A stretch of DNA of 42,595 nucleotides from Candidatus Micrarchaeia archaeon. Its GTDB lineage: Archaea; Micrarchaeota; Micrarchaeia; Burarchaeales; JACRGF01. The DNA lies in the NCBI GenBank assembly GCA_038870455.1, contig JAWCPB010000004.1, positions 1 to 42,595 of the forward strand, written 5' to 3'. Positions 8,997-42,142 of the stretch are shown here, in pieces (the first letter of the stretch is position 1; each line of letters opens with the position of its first letter). The translations under genes and the position numbers were made by a program. The notes beneath the pieces are model-generated. The model was not told the DNA's origin, did no database searches, and was given only the letters and a program-made list of their open reading frames with translations.

Positions 8997-10055
8997 TCAC
9001 AAAAACTTTTGCACGGCCTTTGCATACGCATCGCCCAGCTCGCTGGTGGTGTTTTTTCCGCCGAAATCATAAGTCTTCACCTTTCCTTCCTTGAGCACGC
9101 TCGCCACGGCTTTTTCAACCGCGTCGGCCGCTCGCTGCTCCCCCAGGTGCTCGAGCATCATCCAGCCCGCCAGCACGGCCGCGGTCGGGTTTATGACGTT
9201 TTTTCCCGCGTGCTTGGGCGCGCTGCCGTGAATGGGCTCGAACATGCTGACTCCCTTGGGGTTGATGTTGCCTCCGGGCGCGAACCCCATGCCGCCCTGT
9301 ATTGCGGCAGCCAGGTCAGTTATTATGTCGCCGAACATGTTGGGCGTGACAACCATCTGATACCACTCGGGCTTCCTGACAAACCACTGGGTGATGGCAT
9401 CCACGAAAGCGTTTTCCTTCTCAATGCCCGGATAGTCCCTGCCGACCTCATCGAAAACCCTCCTCCACAGCCCATACACGTGCGACAGCACGTTGGCCTT
9501 GTCCACCGCTGTGACTCGCGTCATCTTCTTTTTCTTTGCGAGCTCGAACGCATACCGGATGACGCGCTCGCTTCCCTTGTAGGTCACGATGCCCACTTGC
9601 GTTGCAACCTCGTCTTTCGTGCCCGTCTTGGTTGAGCCGCCTATTCCCACATAGAAGTCTTCGGTGTTCTCCCGCACGACATAGAAATTGACTTCCTTCG
9701 GCCCCTTGCCTGCGAGCGGGCAGGGCACTCCCTCGTACAGCTTGACCGGCCTGAGATTGACGTACTGGTCGAAGAAGAAACGCATGCGCAGCAGGATGCC
9801 CGTCTCGGCCACGCCCGGCTTTAGCTCCGGATGCCCCACGGCGCCAAGATAAATGGCGTCAAGCTTCTTCATCTCTTCAAGCGCCTGTTCTGTCACGAGC
9901 TCGCCTGTCTTGAGGTAGTGCGCTCCGCTGAACGGGTACTCCACCCACTCTATGGAAAAGCCTTTCTGCGCCGCCTCAACGACTTTCTTTCCCTCGCGGA
10001 TGACCTCGGGCCCCACGCCATCCCCGGGAACCACCGCAATCCTGTATTTTTTCAT
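8997..10055 (-). CDS. leuB: 3-isopropylmalate/isocitrate dehydrogenase family protein
   Basis: [30 protein letters not shown] and FEPIHGSAP motifs. Substrate uncertain. Confidence 0.85.
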
Positions 10056-10094: not shown

Positions 10095-10565
10095 CTATTT
10101 TTTCTTCAACTTCTCCCTTGTCTCGACGACTTCCCATGGATAGACTATCCACGCGCTCGTCTTTCCAATGAAATAATCAGGCTTGAGCGTGCTGTGCGGC
10201 TTGTAGTGCAGGCAGGCAACGCGCACTTCCCCCGCGCCTCGCAGGCTTTTTTTCGCTGCGAGTAGACTCTCGCCCGTATCCGCCACGTCATCGATAATCA
10301 GCACGCGTTTGCCCCTCACGTCCGCGCCCAGCCTCTGCGTTATCCTCGGCTTCCGGGCGGTCTTGCCCGGCGCTTCGTAGAACTCGATTTTCATCGCGCG
10401 CAGGTTGAGGTTGTTCAGCTCGTCGCTCATCACGCGCGCGGGCAACGCCCCCCCTCTCAGAATCATGACGAGAATGTCCGGCCTGAAGCCAGAGCGCTTC
10501 ACCTTGGCCGCGAGCGCCTTGCTCATGCGAATGGCTTTTTGCCAGGAGATGTGGAGGAAGCGCAC
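10095..10565 (-). CDS. Type I (purine) phosphoribosyltransferase
   Basis: ILRGG, PRPP-binding VLIIDDVADTGES, WIVYPWE. Confidence 0.9.
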   Translation of the reverse strand: MRFLHISWQKAIRMSKALAAKVKRSGFRPDILVMILRGGALPARVMSDELNNLNLRAMKIEFYEAPGKTARKPRITQRLGADVRGKRVLIIDDVADTGESLLAAKKSLRGAGEVRVACLHYKPHSTLKPDYFIGKTSAWIVYPWEVVETREKLKKK

Positions 10566-10586
10566 GACCCGTTATCACACTGCTAA

Positions 10587-10593
10587 TTTAAAA
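10587..10593 (+). promoter_or_regulatory. TATA box of tRNA-Arg
   Basis: TTTAAAA beginning 27 nt upstream of the tRNA 5' end. Confidence 0.55.
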
Positions 10594-10613
10594 CTGAGTG
10601 CGTAAATTATCTG

Positions 10614-10860
10614 GGGCCCGTAGCTCAGCTTGGATAGAGCGATGCCCTCCTAAGACAAAGGGGGAAGTATCCCCCCTTCGTCCTAGACCTTCCCCCCTCT
10701 TTGGGATTAAGGCATTGATGAAAAAAGGGTTGCTGGAGGTATCGGAACCGCGCTGGCGGTTCTGATAGGGGTCAGGAGGAACCTGGAACTGGGGGAACCG
10801 AAGGTGCCCCCTGGGTTCGGAGAGAGGCAGAGGTCGCGCGTTCAAATCGCGCCGGGCCCG
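10614..10860 (+). tRNA. tRNA-Arg(CCT) with 172-nt intron at 37/38 (exons 10614-10652 and 10825-10860)
   Basis: Acceptor GGGCCCG/CGGGCCC+G, D-arm GCTC/GAGC, T-arm GCGCG-TTCAAAT-CGCGC. BHB: CTCC(32-35) pairs with GGAG(10819-10822), with 3-nt bulges TAA and AGA. One A27-G43 mismatch. Confidence 0.9.
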
Positions 10861-10863
10861 TTC

Positions 10864-11619
10864 ATGAACGAGCTGACTCCAGAGTTCAAGCTGGCCGTCT
10901 CACAGCTTGCGAATGCGCTTTCTCTCGCTGTAGAGGCCTCGCTGCGCTCGCCGCGCCCTGCGTGGGTGCTCTTCTCAGGAGGGCTGGACTCGAGCGTGCT
11001 TGCAAAGCTCGCGGGCGAGAAAAGGTCAGGCATTCACCTCCTGACGGTGGGAACTAAGGACAGCGAAGATGCGCGATTTGCATTTGAAATTGCAAAAGAG
11101 CTCGGCTTGCCTCTTGATTTTATTGAGCTGAACGTGCAGAAAATCGCCGAATTAAAGGAGCGGGCGAGGCCTTTTTCGCGGACCAACATGGATTTGGAGC
11201 TCGCCATTCTCCTGCTCGCGGCGTGCGAGTTCGCCAGAGGAGGGCTGCTGCTCGCGGGCTCCGGAGCCGAAGAGCTCTTCCTGGGCTACGCGCGCCACAG
11301 AAGCGCTTTTGAGAAGGGAGAAGATCTGGAGGCATTGAGAAGGAGCGAGCTCGCTTCCCTCAGGCAGCGCGACCTCGACAGAAACGAAGCAATCGCCAGG
11401 GCACACGATGCCGAGCTCGCCCTCCCATACCTTCATCCTCTTGTTGTCGAGGCTGCGCTGCGCCTGCCCGCGAGGCTGAACTTCTCGCAAGGCAAGCGCA
11501 AGTTCCTCCTCCAGCTTGCCGCGCGCATGGCCGGCGTTCCCGAGGCCGCCGTGTCAAGGCCCAAGCGCGCCCTCCAGTACGCCAGCGGCGTGCACAAACT
11601 TTTAAAAAGGAACGCGTAA
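10864..11619 (+). CDS. Asparagine synthase C-terminal (PP-loop) domain protein, no glutaminase domain
   Basis: FSGGLDSS, GSGAEELFLGY, LPYL and RPKRALQY motifs. ATG 3 nt after tRNA-Arg. Confidence 0.85.
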   Translation: MNELTPEFKLAVSQLANALSLAVEASLRSPRPAWVLFSGGLDSSVLAKLAGEKRSGIHLLTVGTKDSEDARFAFEIAKELGLPLDFIELNVQKIAELKERARPFSRTNMDLELAILLLAACEFARGGLLLAGSGAEELFLGYARHRSAFEKGEDLEALRRSELASLRQRDLDRNEAIARAHDAELALPYLHPLVVEAALRLPARLNFSQGKRKFLLQLAARMAGVPEAAVSRPKRALQYASGVHKLLKRNA

Positions 11620-14600: not shown

Positions 14601-17317
14601 TCAAGCCGTTCTACGAGATTTCGGTGGATGTCCCGCGCGCCTATGCGTTCGTCAACCTCACCTCTTATTTCGGCCGGCACGCGACCGCGTTCAATTTCAC
14701 GGTCAGGGTAAAATCAAACGCCGATGGCCGTGTGACAAACGAGCTCGCAGGCGTGCCCGGCGAGTGGCTGGCCGCTGCCTGGCCCGACAACCACACCTTT
14801 GAGGCCTACACAAAGGCGCGCTGGAGAGGCCCATTCGAGAAAGCCGGCCAGCTCTATGTCGGCGTGTTTCCGGACTTCAGCCCGCCCTTCTATCAGCCGC
14901 TCGCCGGCAACCGCACGTTCACGCTGACCACGCGCTTGTTCGACGACAGGGGCGCGCTGGTCAAATCGATCCCCAACAATTTCGTGGTTGAGGTGGAACA
15001 AGTGCATGCCGTGCGCGCCGGCTTCTATGCCGTGTTCTCGGGCCTGCGCAACCACACCATTCCCGTGTACGTCGCCGTGACCAACCTCGGCAATGGCCGT
15101 GATGATTTCAACCTCACTGTCTGGACCGAGCACGGCTGGACAGTGCGCGTGCCCAACCCGCGCATTCGCCTGGCGCCCTACCAGCTGCCCGGCTCGACTG
15201 GCATGGTGTTCGCCGAAGTCAGTGTGCCTGCTGACGCCGTGCCGGGCACGAACGAAACGCTGCACGCGCGGGCCGAGCGCGTTGGCCGTCCAGCAACAAA
15301 TCACACCGCAGAAGGCATACTGCGCGTTCGCCCCCTGCTCGAGATGGAGGGCGAGTGGAGGCGGGCCTATGTTTCGCACGCCGTGCTGCCAAACGCCACG
15401 ACATCCTATGAGATGAGGCTGTTCTACAACGGCGATGTGCCGGCTGAAGCCAACCTGTCGGCCGCCCTGCTGAGAGCCTCGCCCGCAGGCTGGAACCACT
15501 CGCTGTCGGCAGCCGCGCTCAATCTCACTCCGCTCTCCCACCAAGCCTTCCGCCTCTCCGTGCGCGCGCCCGACGCCGAGGAGGGAAATCACTCGCTGAA
15601 CATCACGGCGAGAGTGGGCGGGGAGAGTGCTGGCATCAGCGTATTCACCATAATAAGAAGATTCAATCTCACCCTCCAGCCGGGCTGGAACGCCCTGCCT
15701 GTGCCCATAGAAGCGGAGGCCGCGCCCGCCGCGCCAGCCCCTCCAGCGCCCGAGGCCTGGTGCACCGACTCCGACAACGGGAGGGACAGGCTCGTCAAAG
15801 GGCGGGTGAAAATTCCGGGCGGGGCATTCACCGACTACTGCATTTCATCGGATGCCGTGCACGAGTTCTACTGCGCGGACAACAACTACGCTTTTGAAGA
15901 CATCCCGTGCCTGCCGGACGAGACATGCCAGGATGGCAGGTGCGTGAAAAAAGCAGAGGAAGAGGCAGAGTGCCCGCCCAGCCGGCCTTACTGCCTGACT
16001 TCCCAGCAGGCAGCCGACAGGGGGTGCGTGCCGCCGCCCGGCCCCGAGTGCTCGCCGCTCGGCGAGTGGCCGCGGATGTGCTGGTGGTGCCCGACGCAAC
16101 TCCAGGCCGCAAGCTACAGCGAACCCGTTCTGCTGCTGGCGCCAGCCTCATCATCGCTTAAGAGCTTCACCGCCTCGCAGCTGGCCGCTCTCCTGCAGGC
16201 CCAGCTGCCCCGCGGCCGCGTGGTTGAAATCACAAGCTATGCGAACGGCTCCTTCCAGCACTTCATTGTCGGCATCACCCCACCCAACGCGTCCGAAGAC
16301 TTTTCTCTCGAGCCGGGCTCGGCCTACTGGGCGCGCATCGAAGGCGAGGGCGCGGCCATCACACTTCCAGCGCAGGCAACCGCCGAGCTGTCCCTCCAGC
16401 CCGGCTGGAATTTCGTGAGCGTGCCCGCGGCCGCGCGCGCCTCCCAAGCCTTCCCGGCCGCCACGCAAGTCTCGCTGTGGAGGCCCGCCGAACAGGCCTT
16501 CGCGGACTTCATTCCGGGCTTTCATCCCCCGCTCGGCGAGGGAGACCTGTGGCTCGTGCCGGGCGATGCAGTATGGATATTCTCTGGCGAGCGCGCTCGC
16601 CCGCAGGCAGAGGCCGCCGTGCCGCTGCCGCACGCAATCTACGGTGTGGTGAGCGAGGATGGAACTCCAGCCGAGGGAGCAGGAGTGACCCTCATCATCG
16701 AAAGCACTGGCGAGGCGCTGCACGCGCTCACGGATGCCCAAGGCAGGTTCTCAATCAACCTTGCCAACGCCCGCAGCGGGTACTATGACGGCGGAGGGGT
16801 GAGGATTTTGGCTTCAAAGGGGGAGCTCTTCGGCCAATCCTCGCTCATCGTTGACGCTTCGCGGCCAAACCAGCGGGCCGACCTCGCCCTCGCCGCAAAG
16901 CCGAACCTGCGCATCACGCTCGCGCCATCCAAGCCGGCTCCTGTTGAAGGCGAGCCCATCGCGCTCGCGGCCACGCTGTCCAACGAGGGAGGCGAGCCCG
17001 CAAACGCCAGCGCCGGCCTGTTCATTGACGGGCAACTCGCAGAAACAAAAAATGTTCTCCTTTCCTCGCACTCTGCCCAGCAGCTTCTGTTCGCCTGGAA
17101 CGCCTCTGCCGGAGCGCACGTCATTGTCGTGAAGGCAGAGCCCCTGCCCCTTGAGGCCTTTCTGGAAGACAACAGCGCCAACGCAACTGTCTCGGTCATG
17201 TCGAGGCCGGCGGTTGAGCTCGCCCCGCCGCCCGCCAGGCTCTGCCCGCTGTTCCTGCTGCCGGCCGCGCTCGCCCTGCTGCTCTTTGGCAGGCCGCGCT
17301 GCATGAAAACTTTTTGA
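11627..17317 (+). CDS. Large cell-surface protein with CARDB/Ig-like domains, a Cys-rich module and a C-terminal membrane anchor
   Basis: Signal peptide; repeated PDL/NL...IxNxG...D..NN CARDB motifs; many NxT/S sequons; two LQPGWN motifs; CTDSDNG module; C-terminal CPLFLLPAALALLLFGRPR. Confidence 0.9.
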   Translation: MRSTLLALLFLACFASAAIVPGKSGTTYKDNPDFPPTLLELAEIFWDHDNSGYADGDYYPIYVSDKTAFDKRNPFLLSYLQNWYGSAHSDAFKRNALDAGGWAGGPPRAEYRYVPNAAAAFSESRVQAHTPSYYSGTYKPTPTELIRAYTKNPHWIKGMPYIFGGSSIEDIYGFVEDAGWSGTPIEVIGDAKDVATFAIGYVLYFAFDIPGFYKGLYEKMLEGEKKKKHMLLRAGVYGPAGLVMVNEERTAAFRRVEDISASHARGSGAWIRASQGAVEVLDGIAGKTVVESTGGWKAEHDDTVLAPASGSFDSAVIYWDFILEVDERGGDGDFAGHLQLVATDSAGGEHVHDLAGANKDQARWSPAAGDRRYFVWSGVTTVKAGDYGTAKLKALKLSSTAATSASKGNTRAVAYLEFYPLLYERLSMDLRPTSALNKTPPVEGENITVDAWIENVGDVNALDVLAVLKDGATELGWARLNISANTAAKASFGWQPSAGNHTLSLEVVSEGGEWGVPDANRSNNILRKDVRVYAAGELLPDLAVTDIGLPPVVGGVPATLTVTIQNKGVATTAGHPSAKAYFYVDGKKVLIGEVLPLAPGANTTLPFSHTFEFRECDMYKRTNYNISVQLEPGAPDADASNNELSKIAAVSAPDAANLVVLNLFPSKGRAGVLDMKVGQTTEIEVQVGNNGLKNSSLTDLRLFRVVGGERWEMTSWLLPKISPAGPPVSFYYNWSPPARGDYEIEAHADYGKRITELCETDNVRKAHISVELAYHNVSLGCWQAGSLKDACFASAAEEGGAYKQITFYPDIGNTGTLPGTYRVTAQLPAGWSGAFSKEWFDMTPKSAEAFRYFVTPPANALGGNNTITLTAALAGNASVTDNTVLTVFIPEHFAANLSATSTRREVRVNETAVFDVTLTNTGNTRDTEFFVWFGGDLTANASISSVRLSAGESRSFTVAATPPELTAGNYSLTVFAGTTEATLANLSLTITVKPFYEISVDVPRAYAFVNLTSYFGRHATAFNFTVRVKSNADGRVTNELAGVPGEWLAAAWPDNHTFEAYTKARWRGPFEKAGQLYVGVFPDFSPPFYQPLAGNRTFTLTTRLFDDRGALVKSIPNNFVVEVEQVHAVRAGFYAVFSGLRNHTIPVYVAVTNLGNGRDDFNLTVWTEHGWTVRVPNPRIRLAPYQLPGSTGMVFAEVSVPADAVPGTNETLHARAERVGRPATNHTAEGILRVRPLLEMEGEWRRAYVSHAVLPNATTSYEMRLFYNGDVPAEANLSAALLRASPAGWNHSLSAAALNLTPLSHQAFRLSVRAPDAEEGNHSLNITARVGGESAGISVFTIIRRFNLTLQPGWNALPVPIEAEAAPAAPAPPAPEAWCTDSDNGRDRLVKGRVKIPGGAFTDYCISSDAVHEFYCADNNYAFEDIPCLPDETCQDGRCVKKAEEEAECPPSRPYCLTSQQAADRGCVPPPGPECSPLGEWPRMCWWCPTQLQAASYSEPVLLLAPASSSLKSFTASQLAALLQAQLPRGRVVEITSYANGSFQHFIVGITPPNASEDFSLEPGSAYWARIEGEGAAITLPAQATAELSLQPGWNFVSVPAAARASQAFPAATQVSLWRPAEQAFADFIPGFHPPLGEGDLWLVPGDAVWIFSGERARPQAEAAVPLPHAIYGVVSEDGTPAEGAGVTLIIESTGEALHALTDAQGRFSINLANARSGYYDGGGVRILASKGELFGQSSLIVDASRPNQRADLALAAKPNLRITLAPSKPAPVEGEPIALAATLSNEGGEPANASAGLFIDGQLAETKNVLLSSHSAQQLLFAWNASAGAHVIVVKAEPLPLEAFLEDNSANATVSVMSRPAVELAPPPARLCPLFLLPAALALLLFGRPRCMKTF

Positions 17318-23122: not shown

Positions 23123-23139
23123 CTCTTCACCTGGAGGTT

Positions 23140-23217
23140 CTAGGAACCAACGATGTGACGAGGAGCGAGCCTCGCGACAGCGAGGTGCGAGCGACGAAGT
23201 CATCGGTTGGTTCCTAG
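23140..23217. repeat. 78-bp palindromic element with CTAG ends (MITE/REP-like)
   Basis: Perfect 11-bp terminal inverted repeat CTAGGAACCAA / TTGGTTCCTAG, extended by CGA..TGAC / GTCA..TCG; inner hairpin CCTCGC-GACA-GCGAGG. Confidence 0.8.
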
Positions 23218-23293
23218 TGGGCCCGGCGGGATTTGAACCCACGACTTCCTGGTTAAAAGCCAGGCACTCTAGGCCAAGCTGAGTTACGGGCCC
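23218..23293 (-). tRNA. tRNA-Lys(TTT), intronless
   Basis: GGGCCCGTAACTCAGCTTGGCCTAGAGTGCCTGGCTTTTAACCAGGAAGTCGTGGGTTCAAATCCCGCCGGGCCCA folds to a cloverleaf; TTAAAAA upstream at 23317-23323. Confidence 0.95.
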
Positions 23294-23503: not shown

Positions 23504-25150
23504 TCATTTCCCCCTAAGCCTTTCCTCTTGCGCTTTTATTTTTTCATCGGTTATCTTCTCGAACAGCGGCCGTGCCTCGCCGACGGCTGCGCCCGGCGGC
23601 AGGAGCTCGCGGTCGGCATTCCGCCACCTCAACAGGCTCTCGCTGAGGCCCAGCATGGCGTACAGCCTGCGCGCGGCGAACGGAAGGAAGGGCTCGAGCA
23701 GCACTCCGAGCGCGGTGACCCCTCTCACGCAGACATACAGCGTGGCGGCAACCCGCTCCCCTTTTTTTTCCTTCCAAGGCTCTCTCTCGCTCAGAAAACG
23801 GTTCAGTTCGCCCGACAGCGCGAGTATCTCCTCGAGCGCGAGCTTGAACTCGAACTTCTGGAGGAGGCTCCCAGTTTTTTCTTTCACCCCGCTTATTCTG
23901 TCGAGAACAGCTTTTTCCTCTTTGCCGACCTTCGCTTTCGGCACTTTTCCATCCGCGAGCTTCTTGACGAGCACGAGCGTGCGGTGAATGAAATTCCCAA
24001 TGTTCGCCACGAGCTCGTTGTTTATCTTGTCTTGAAAGTCCTTCCAGTAGAAGTCCGCGTCCTCGGTGGAATACGGCGTTATCATCGTCTCGTAGTACCT
24101 CAGGTAATCCGGGTCGAATTCCTTGAGGTAGTCGGCGAGGCTGACGAACCATTTTTTGCTCTTGCTGAACTTGCGTCCCTCGAGGTTTAGGTATCCCCTG
24201 ACCGGGATGGCGTGCGGGAGGTTGAATCCGTCCTCCGTCCCCATGAGCATGGCCGGCCAGAAGAGAAAGTGGTGGTAGATGATGTCCTTGCCGATGAAGT
24301 GGATGATTCTCGCTTTTTTGTTTTTCCAATACTCCTGCCATTTTTCCGGCAGCAGGGCTGCCGTGGAGCTGACATAGCCTATGGGCGCGTCAAACCACAC
24401 ATAGAATACTTTGTCGGGCTTGCCTGGCACGGGCACGCCCCAGGCGAGGTCGCGCGTGATGTCCCAGTCGTTCAACCCGCCCTCAATCCAATTCAGGATG
24501 TAATTGAGCACTTCCCTCTGCAGGTTCTTGTTGCCCACGAGCCACTCCCTGAGCCTGGCCGAGAACTTGCTGAGCGCGAGGAAAGAGTGCACGGTTGTTC
24601 TTGTGACGGGCCTGCTGCCGCACACGCCGCACGCGGGCTCGAGTATCTCCCCGGGCCCCAGCGCCTTGCCGCAGGCGTCGCAGTAGTCGCTGTACTGGCC
24701 TGCCGCGCCGCAGTGCGGGCACTTTCCGACAACAAACCTGTCGGGAAGAAAGCGCCTGCACTTCTCGCAGTACGCCTGGGCAACTTCCTTCTCGTAAATG
24801 AACCCGTTGGCGAGCAGCCTGTTGTAAAAGTGCTGTGTGAGCTCTCTGTTCTCCCTGCTGCTCGTGCGGTGAAAGATGTCGAATGAGAAGCCGAGCGCGG
24901 CGAACTCCTGCCTGTCCTTCTCGTGGTAGTAGTCAACGAATTCCTTCGGCGTTTTCCCATCCTTTTCAGCGGCCGCCACGATGGGCGTGCCGTGCTCGTC
25001 AGTCGCGCACACGTACACTACGTCGTTGCCGAGCGAGCGCTGGAAGCGCGCGTAAATGTCGCTGGGAAGATAGGTGCTTCTGATGTGGCCCAGGTGAAGC
25101 GGGCCGTTTGCGTACGGAAGCGCGGCTGTTACAAGGGTTTTCTCGACGAT
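23504..25150 (-). CDS. metG: Methionyl-tRNA synthetase (probable non-canonical ATC start)
   Basis: TAALPYANGPLHLGH (HIGH motif), TDEHG, Zn knuckles, YVWFDA, GKDI, KFSKS. The frame extends upstream of the track's GTG (25018) to ATC at 25150 and is then closed by TAA at 25160-25162. Confidence 0.95.
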   Translation of the reverse strand: MVEKTLVTAALPYANGPLHLGHIRSTYLPSDIYARFQRSLGNDVVYVCATDEHGTPIVAAAEKDGKTPKEFVDYYHEKDRQEFAALGFSFDIFHRTSSRENRELTQHFYNRLLANGFIYEKEVAQAYCEKCRRFLPDRFVVGKCPHCGAAGQYSDYCDACGKALGPGEILEPACGVCGSRPVTRTTVHSFLALSKFSARLREWLVGNKNLQREVLNYILNWIEGGLNDWDITRDLAWGVPVPGKPDKVFYVWFDAPIGYVSSTAALLPEKWQEYWKNKKARIIHFIGKDIIYHHFLFWPAMLMGTEDGFNLPHAIPVRGYLNLEGRKFSKSKKWFVSLADYLKEFDPDYLRYYETMITPYSTEDADFYWKDFQDKINNELVANIGNFIHRTLVLVKKLADGKVPKAKVGKEEKAVLDRISGVKEKTGSLLQKFEFKLALEEILALSGELNRFLSEREPWKEKKGERVAATLYVCVRGVTALGVLLEPFLPFAARRLYAMLGLSESLLRWRNADRELLPPGAAVGEARPLFEKITDEKIKAQEERLRGK

Positions 25151-41900: not shown

Positions 41901-41947
41901 CAAACCAGCCTCCTGTTTTACTACTCGCATCAGCTATAAAAACTAAG

Positions 41948-42142
41948 CGCCGGGGGCGAGATTTTCGAACCCTTTTTCCGTCAACGCTTTTGCAAGCGAG
42001 GGTTGTTCGAACTCGCGAAGGCTTTTGGCCCAACAGCTTTCCGAACACCCCACCCAGACAAGAGGGGAGGGTCCAGGACGAAGGGGGGATGCTCCCCCCT
42101 TTGTCTTAGCAGGCTGCCGCCCTACCACTAGGCGACCCCAGC
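41948..42142 (-). tRNA. tRNA-Ser(GCT) with two introns (37/38: 42039-42106, 68 nt; 59/60: 41962-42005, 44 nt)
   Basis: Acceptor GCTGGGG/CCCCGGC+G, anticodon stem GCAGC/GCTGT, long variable arm, T-stem GCGAG/CTCGC. The T-loop intron has a strict BHB (TTCG/CGAA, bulges AAC and AAT, outer AACCCT/AGGGTT). The 37/38 BHB is imperfect. Confidence 0.9.

Follow-up and report, generated by a model that had tools for sequence, protein, structure and literature searches.

A probable 172-nt intron composed of dispersed hairpin repeats in a tRNA-Arg(CCU) gene of a Micrarchaeia archaeon

The tRNA-Arg(CCU) gene and its insert

A tRNA-Arg(CCU) gene with a 172-nt insert lies at positions 10614-10860 of the plus strand of the window, that is, the whole 42,595-nt stretch of DNA analysed here (positions 1-42,595 of the forward strand of contig JAWCPB010000004.1, from the Candidatus Micrarchaeia archaeon assembly GCA_038870455.1). 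The gene was predicted by ARAGORN with introns allowed, as tRNA-Arg(cct) with the insert after tRNA position 37; it escapes ARAGORN run with default settings as well as Rfam at the gathering score. The anticodon CCU and the acceptor, D, anticodon and T arms are legible straight from the sequence, and the 5′ exon is 92-97% identical to the ortholog exons in the 7 of the 16 examined relatives that show a full 39-nt match. Most likely, as judged from the sequence, the insert is a genuine, spliced-out intron, and it is built from dispersed hairpin repeats. Hereinafter, we denote the genome containing the window (1.04 Mb in 51 contigs, 60% G+C, 90% complete) as G000 and the single congener compared (95% complete) as G001; C and L followed by a number designate contigs and extracted loci, respectively. 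The features of the gene are as follows:

10614..10652, plus strand: tRNA-Arg(CCU) 5′ exon, tRNA positions 1-37 (ARAGORN with introns; alignment of ortholog exons)
10653..10824, plus strand: 172-nt intron at the canonical 37/38 position (ARAGORN, bulge-helix-bulge (BHB) scan, 3′ junction of the congener, intronless orthologs)
10825..10860, plus strand: tRNA-Arg(CCU) 3′ exon, tRNA positions 38-73 (ARAGORN with introns; exon comparison)
10647..10655, plus strand: 5′ half of the BHB motif, with CUCC 10647-50, bulge UAA 10651-53, G10654 and A10655 (BHB scan)
10817..10825, plus strand: 3′ half of the BHB motif, with U10817, C10818, GGAG 10819-22 and bulge AGA 10823-25 (BHB scan)

The BHB scan identified a strict 3-4-3 motif, the single one that gives a proper tRNA, in which CUCC (10647-10650) pairs with GGAG (10819-10822) and the bulges UAA and AGA set the predicted cuts after 10652 and 10824. 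The exon helix of the motif comprises 4 bp, and the intron-side helix just 2 bp (G10654-C10818 and A10655-U10817). An open reading frame (ORF) of 387 aa (G000:C25, L047:1210-2373, minus strand) that contains the PF01974 and PF02778 domains matches PDB 4fz2 over residues 3-387 (E = 3e-135); going by this match, which is also in keeping with the affiliation of the genome with Micrarchaeota, the protein is an ε2-type, broad-specificity splicing endonuclease. Altogether, the 37/38 position, the cloverleaf-forming exons, the hBHBh′ motif and the encoded endonuclease are those of a canonical archaeal BHB tRNA intron. A second endonuclease-like gene (G000:C2:67432-67674; L048:1468-2526, minus strand) encodes a 352-aa protein, the C-terminal half of which contains both PF01974 and PF02778.

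The intron is unusually long, as an earlier note on this DNA, made from the letters alone, had remarked: the passage on archaeal tRNA introns in a 2014 review (PMC4090602) gives a range of 11-129 nt. The strings that this note had singled out are all present at the positions given, namely, P1 (10654-10682), P2 (10681-10691/10768-10777), a 12-bp hairpin (10740-10767), a terminal helix GAACCTG/TGGGTTC (10779-10785/10812-10818), an additional GGAG (10775-10778) and the box-like words TGATGA (10716-10721) and CTGA (10762-10765). The pre-tRNA folds at -113 kcal/mol (z = -2.54), with 2 of 200 shuffles equally stable. The minimum free energy (MFE) and centroid structures share a 3′ hairpin as well as P1 and the 12-bp hairpin; P2 is possible and is missing from the MFE structure.

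Modules of the intron, their copies and their turnover

A 281-nt query around the gene produced 28 matches in G000 and 40 in G001, and in a BLAST search of the intron against G000, blocks were in common with many contigs, one copy being C18:7888-7991 (98% identity over 105 nt). Self-BLAST of G000 delineated 64 short repeat regions, 6,858 bp in total. Of these, 26 are inside a listed tRNA gene or no more than 100 nt from one, compared with an expectation of 0.7 and no more than 5 in any of 2000 random placements. We drew the boundaries of four modules, M1 to M4, from the block edges of the BLAST matches to the intron and counted module matches with blastn-short (E up to 1e-3, the intron's own copies included). 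By this count, G000 contains 17 matches to M1, 2 to M2, 5 to M3 and 15 to M4, along with 17 to a fifth module that is common in other introns. The modules of the intron are:

10653..10695, plus strand: M1, the P1 hairpin and the 5′ strand of P2 (17 blastn-short matches in G000)
10696..10729, plus strand: M2, filler in the P2 loop that holds TGATGA (2 matches in G000)
10730..10766, plus strand: M3, a 37-nt hairpin with the 12-bp stem and CTGA (5 matches in G000)
10767..10822, plus strand: M4, a conserved 3′ hairpin from which the BHB takes its GGAG (covariance model R1 matches 10766-10821)

The modules in arrays are co-oriented and follow the constant order M1, (M2), (M3), M4. In the copies at C2, C19, C14 and C33, M2 is shorter or missing, and M1 is joined to M4 via a short P2 hairpin loop. 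M3 is cleanly set between M2 and M4 and has long forms of ~82 nt in tandem arrays. The copies at C3:2049-2179 and C17, with added M2-like filler, lack M3 and are collinear in all other respects. M3 was added at an identical point (the end of M2 and start of M4) in the intron, in the C18 copy and in two G001 copies; no target duplication was seen for M3. From this graded series of copies (without M2 and M3, without M3, and complete), the intron can be read as a three-hairpin unit with the middle loop enlarged twice: on this comparison, a recurrent M1-P2-M4 unit, with the P2 loop expanded by M2 and then by M3, makes up all 172 nt as a single copy. The P1 and P2 stems are invariant among the copies seen, with variation confined to the P2 bulge base and the P1 loop.

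A tandem arrangement of the complete unit was seen in the congener. Three full units and a long M3 hairpin lie upstream of tRNA-Ser(GCU) at G001:C10:21900-22430 (L022/L046), with the units joined head to tail at the GGTTCGGA / AGACAAAGG ends. There is no array at this place in G000, and synteny ends there, so the site is unusable as a filled/empty comparison.

The tRNA-Arg(CCU) gene could be read in 16 genomes of the order and class, and the length of its 37/38 intron varies widely among them:

0 nt: 7 of the 16 genomes
12, 17 and 18 nt: one genome each
45, 58 and 114 nt: one genome each, family f8; these introns begin with an M1-like hairpin
80 nt: one genome of another family (G021); the intron ends in M4
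129 nt: one genome
172 nt: G000

Thus, the relatives do not carry uniformly long introns (0 nt in 7 of the 16, 12-172 nt in the other 9), and the presence or absence of individual modules in relatives and paralogs bears out the suggestion that the intron is composite. The G001 gene is syntenic (with a shared downstream gene) and has an identical 3′ junction. Its intron contains an additional 82-nt long M3 and a different top of the M4 hairpin, and the assembled part is otherwise collinear. Given that the G001 contig starts inside the intron, the intron is at least 193 nt long there; the 5′ exon was not found in the G001 assembly (no matches to a 33-base pattern with 2 mismatches allowed).

Copies of the modules are found in other tRNA introns of G000 and the congener, as well as in tRNA flanks and intergenic spacers. 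M1 is a genus-level dispersed repeat, with matches in G000 and G001 only, among 29 genomes of the order; in G000, it also begins the 37/38 introns of tRNA-Ser(GCU), in the window, and of tRNA-Thr(CGU), on C26. M4 also terminates introns of tRNA-Ser(CGA) and tRNA-Ser(UGA) in G000. No clear strict BHB was seen in the module-bearing tRNA-Ser and tRNA-Thr introns, which were inspected by eye only, with no scan made. Two further module-bearing features lie in the window:

41947..42139, minus strand: tRNA-Ser(GCU) with two introns, a 68-nt M1-type 37/38 intron (42039-42106) and a T-loop intron (41963-42005)
23133..23216, plus strand: long M3-type, 84-nt near-perfect hairpin that abuts the 3′ end of tRNA-Lys(UUU) (23217-23293, minus strand), antisense to the tRNA

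The 68-nt 37/38 intron of tRNA-Ser(GCU) is present in G000 and cleanly missing in G001; because M1 is confined to these two genomes among the 29, this intron was, most simply, gained within the genus. Across 10 genomes of the order, tRNA-Ser(GCU) has no 37/38 intron in 3 and carries introns of differing sequences and modules in 7, including one (G021) that contains M4 in antisense. The stem base of the tRNA-Lys hairpin shows compensating changes relative to the common form, and the congener retains the right half alone; the difference between the two genomes at this site is a 51-nt deletion or truncation rather than a clean insertion.

The tRNA-Thr(CGU) gene of G000 (C26, ~15790-16125, minus strand) contains three introns, in the D-loop, at 37/38 and in the T-loop, all built of modules. 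At G000:C11, ~9324-9510 (plus strand), an apparent 5′ half of tRNA-Arg(CCG) is followed by modules, with no recognisable 3′ half; this could be a split or decayed gene. The Rfam tRNA model yields just 15 matches in the 90% complete G000. Long or multiple introns hide many tRNA genes, so that standard annotation would undercount them badly.

M4 extends across the order. The M4 covariance model matches 16 of the 29 genomes, in 11 of the 18 genera, with 1-27 copies each and the highest number, 27, in G000. When 20 copies are aligned, a covarying hairpin emerges, with unpaired sequence around it that does not vary. This long hairpin (AACUG with CGGUU plus a G/C stem; 98.6% of the cells paired across the 20 copies, with both-sided changes in 6 of the 11 pairs) competes with the outer 7-bp helix proposed earlier for the end of the intron. 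The outer helix is best formed in the tRNA-Arg copy itself; across the same copies, only 72.1% of its cells are paired, and two of its pairs hold in just 2 and 9 of the 20 copies.

Recent insertions of M4 can be observed directly. Direct repeats scoring at least 12 in the repeat scan flank 13 of 35 M4 copies from several genomes, compared with none of 35 when the control was reversed. Tandem arrays account for 5 of the 13, and the other 8 are single sites, at which the repeats measure 12-41 nt. At two sites at or near gene starts, G000 is filled and G001 is empty:

G000:C3 ~46856-46913 (L066): target duplication of 26 nt, insert of 66 nt
G000:C13 ~24905-24979 (L049): target duplication of ~49 nt (BLAST overlap), insert of ~77 nt

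The empty G001 sites contain a single copy of the duplicated segment and no element. Target duplications of such length and variability fit no transposon class known to us. In other genomes, M4 often forms the 3′ end of T-loop introns (L057, L069, L070, L075, L090 and L092); its GGTTCGG end, which resembles T-loop sequence, stands where the T-loop sequence resumes, a likeness that hints at microhomology-guided insertion. At L060, L061 and L076, also in other genomes, a tRNA has M4 immediately downstream, and beyond M4 its last 12-36 nt appear again, as a stray 3′ fragment.

Splicing, growth of the intron and alternative explanations

We consider it probable that the tRNA-Arg(CCU) gene is functional, that its BHB intron is a mosaic repeat copy cut in one step by the ε2 enzyme, and that this intron grew by module insertion or exchange. 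In this scenario, CUCC in the anticodon loop of the exon would pair with the GGAG at the end of M4, forming the 4-bp central helix, with the multi-hairpin body of the intron projecting from the 5′ bulge side. The ε2-type endonuclease would then cut both 3-nt bulges in a single step, after 10652 and 10824, followed by exon ligation, and the intron would be released in one piece and probably circularised. At the DNA level, the modules would be mobile or recombining elements, such that the intron grew and changed through module insertion and exchange with other copies. Introns, tRNA flanks and spacers are sites that are either removed or tolerated, which would account for the survival of modules there, and the inclusion of GGAG in the consensus end of M4 may explain why the unit settled in the CCU anticodon loop. 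The combination of M3 without target duplications and M4 with long, variable ones suggests, by inference only, that the modules move by a replication, template-switch or microhomology route rather than by means of a classical transposase.

Several observations weigh against this scenario. The 2-bp intron-side helix of the BHB is in competition with P1 and with either of the two M4 folds, so that the real substrate may be a relaxed motif. In three sets of public DNA contigs, no single contig spans the interior of the intron, so that the order M1-M2-M3 rests on this assembly together with the collinear paralogous copies; 10501-10655 is covered without mismatch and 10737-10825 with one, and both exon-intron junctions are independently seen. 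Many of the pieces of public contigs are short, with skips of 42-84 nt that match paralogs without M2 or M3 and are not assignable to this locus, and there is one uninterpretable skip of 197 nt, at a depth of 2.4. Some of the 26 repeat regions associated with tRNA genes owe their place there to the resemblance of tRNA exons to one another and not to modules, and the list of tRNAs used has gaps. Searches of the two genomes for a mobiliser found Y1_Tnp in 0 of 2, RVT_1 in 0 of 2 and the TnpB zinc ribbon above the cut-off in neither; the search was limited to these three domains. Finally, the conservation of the unpaired parts of M4 across the order exceeds the needs of a purely selfish hairpin, and these parts may have a function.

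A broader proposal, which we hold tentatively and regard as possible, is that the modules, M4 above all, represent a new class of protein-less mobile DNA in Micrarchaeota, with replication- or template-switch-like insertion, and are a vehicle of archaeal tRNA intron gain, in which case the 172-nt intron would be a three-layer record of such events. Microhomology to the GGTTCGG end would explain both the frequent landing of M4 in T-loops and its long, variable target duplications. Bringing along ready-made helices and a GGAG or T-loop-like end, such modules would create and enlarge BHB introns.

Alternatively, the modules could be signals under selection in the RNA of tRNA transcripts (hairpins for processing, stabilisation or termination, or sites recognised by a protein) that spread by duplication because they are useful. 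The strong enrichment of the modules in and beside tRNA genes is compatible with this explanation, as are the arrays that exactly fill tRNA-tRNA spacers, up to the first base of tRNA-Val and tRNA-Leu, the G.U pair retained in the M3 stem and the primary sequence of M4, kept in 16 of the 29 genomes of the order. We nevertheless find it unlikely: copies are also found at the starts of protein genes and between protein genes, with target duplications; modules occur in both orientations relative to the adjoining tRNAs; orthologous sites differ between the congeners without visible consequence; and per-genome counts from the M4 model vary between 0 and 27 within a single order.

The earlier note had proposed that an element of 125 nt was inserted in front of an older, canonical 47-nt intron (10778-10824), with possible stepwise splicing, the inner element first. 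The idea of stacking is right in spirit, that is, partly supported, but the partition is wrong, and we rate this version as quite unlikely. By sequence, the last 47 nt do yield CUCC/GGAG, bulges UAG and AGA and a 7-bp helix, and the 80-nt tRNA-Arg(CCU) intron of G021 ends in M4 without M1, M2 or M3. By the family boundaries, however, M4 starts at 10767 rather than 10778, so that the 47 nt begin 11 nt inside a module that is itself a dispersed repeat, and none of the 16 genomes has an ortholog with the 47-nt version alone. As for stepwise splicing, the intron contains two internal 3-4-3 motifs, one of which (10699/10767) would excise 68 nt, roughly M2 and M3. This number is at the chance level (2 versus 1.7 +/- 1.5, with at least 2 in 48% of 300 dinucleotide shuffles, when both flanking helices are required to be at least 3 bp); the motifs are not kept in paralogous copies, the 10699/10767 one being lost in the G001 copies that carry M2 and M3 in different sequence; and excision of 10653-10777 would require a BHB of its own, of which none was found.

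The box-like words also raised the possibility that the intron hosts a small RNA with a function, such as a box C/D guide of the kind present in euryarchaeal tRNA-Trp introns, or some other stable RNA that splicing would release; we judge it very unlikely. TGATGA and CTGA are 51 nt apart end to end, a typical size for archaeal C/D RNAs, and sequence conservation throughout the order is high in the unpaired parts of M4. The tRNA-Trp introns, as described in the corresponding passage of the 2014 review, nest a C/D RNA (PMC4090602). Here, TGATGA (in M2) and CTGA (in M3) belong to separable modules, and there are copies with just one of the two. A perfect 10-12-bp helix encloses CTGA, which is fully Watson-Crick paired, with the terminal stem or complementary flank absent, such that the boxes are not paired into a k-turn; neither was a GA/GA k-turn seen in M4 by eye. 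An Rfam scan of 10560-10900 (E up to 10) returned only sub-threshold hits, the best one to a C/D family being sR20 (15.3 bits versus a cut-off of 44; E = 1.1), that is, no match to a curated family, and one copy of M4, in the G021 tRNA-Ser intron, is antisense.

An assembly artefact, in which a chimeric or collapsed repeat join conceals a shorter, longer or reordered intron, is highly improbable: assemblies do break at modules (contig ends coincide with 11 of the 64 repeat regions, the G001 contig begins inside the orthologous intron and no public contig spans the whole stretch), but both exon-intron junctions have the support of public contigs (10501-10655 and 10737-10825), the order M1-M2-M3-M4 recurs at C18 and in three G001 copies, and the assembled part of the G001 ortholog is collinear.

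Comparison with known systems

The acquisition of archaeal tRNA introns is an open question: the section on intron transposition in the 2014 review calls the mechanism unknown (PMC4090602), and a 2026 Asgard preprint, in the part that addresses the arrival route of introns, still leaves it open. Here, the building blocks of a very long intron are visible as DNA elements. Sister species differ by entire introns and by single modules, and the filled and empty sites of M4 are clean, so that the gain and growth of introns can be put to the test; for in vitro assays, there is a cloned endonuclease with a known structure. If the broader proposal is true, the modules are the long-sought vehicle of archaeal tRNA intron gain. 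There is also a practical warning: standard tRNA finders miss such intron-laden genes. In the full-text literature, subscription papers and supplements aside, we came across no account of tRNA introns built from repeats in Micrarchaeota or DPANN, nor any precedent for mosaic introns that share repeats with spacers and gene starts, for module-level differences between orthologs, or for a module that has both filled and empty sites and duplications of great and variable length.

Short hairpin units that form intergenic mosaics of variable order, in many copies per genome, are the repetitive extragenic palindromes (REP) and bacterial interspersed mosaic elements (BIME) of enterobacteria and the BOX elements of pneumococci. 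The modules described here resemble these elements in being multi-copy hairpin mosaics and, more generally, share with the miniature inverted-repeat transposable element (MITE) and REP types a short, non-coding, hairpin-forming sequence with filled and empty sites; a target duplication of fixed length is lacking, and so is a cognate transposase, as far as Y1_Tnp, RVT_1 and TnpB domain searches of G000 and G001 cover the known families. Unlike REP, which to our knowledge makes no target duplications, the modules have no REP-associated tyrosine transposase (RAYT/Y1; 0 of 2 genomes), occupy sites inside tRNA introns and, in the case of M4, generate target duplications.

The euryarchaeal tRNA-Trp C/D intron, as outlined in the 2014 review (PMC4090602), has in common with the intron described here the 37/38 position, the great length, internal structure and a C-box-like word. 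In contrast to that intron, there is no conserved C/D pair, k-turn or Rfam match here, and the boxes are on separable modules. The tRNA-Thr gene of Caldiarchaeum, in the account given in PMC3293823, offers another parallel, with intron gain and a duplicated tRNA fragment within one population via mobile DNA, comparable to the duplicated tRNA 3′ ends beside M4; the Caldiarchaeum element is 1.8 kb long and encodes a recombinase (PMC3293823), whereas the elements described here are 37-170 nt long and encode nothing.

Within Micrarchaeota, the comparison system is ARMAN-2 (Ca. Micrarchaeum), with its disrupted tRNA genes and ε2 endonuclease; the introns assayed there are 13 and 25 nt long, and the main-text passages on them do not mention repeat-built introns or introns longer than 100 nt (PMC3239211, PMC3488258).

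The closest known case is that of the transposed introns of Thermoproteales, in which near-identical sequences in tRNA genes of different identity imply recent gain at the DNA level, in the wording of the review passage (PMC4090602) on Fujishima et al. 2010 (Mol Biol Evol 27:2233). By the same passage, the likeness extends to recent intron gain across tRNA identities and to an endonuclease that accepts relaxed BHB motifs. In our data, one sequence likewise occurs in tRNAs of different identity (M1 in Arg, Ser(GCU) and Thr; M4 in Arg, Ser(CGA) and Ser(UGA)), and an intron is present in one and absent from the other of two close relatives (tRNA-Ser(GCU), G000 versus G001). Unlike the Thermoproteales introns, the small modules described here also reside outside tRNA genes, in spacers, flanks and gene starts, and are mosaic and nested, and M4 has sites both filled and empty, where the target duplications are long and vary in length. 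The hosts differ as well: DPANN archaea of the Micrarchaeota with an ε2 enzyme here, as opposed to Crenarchaeota with an (αβ)2 enzyme in the case of Thermoproteales.

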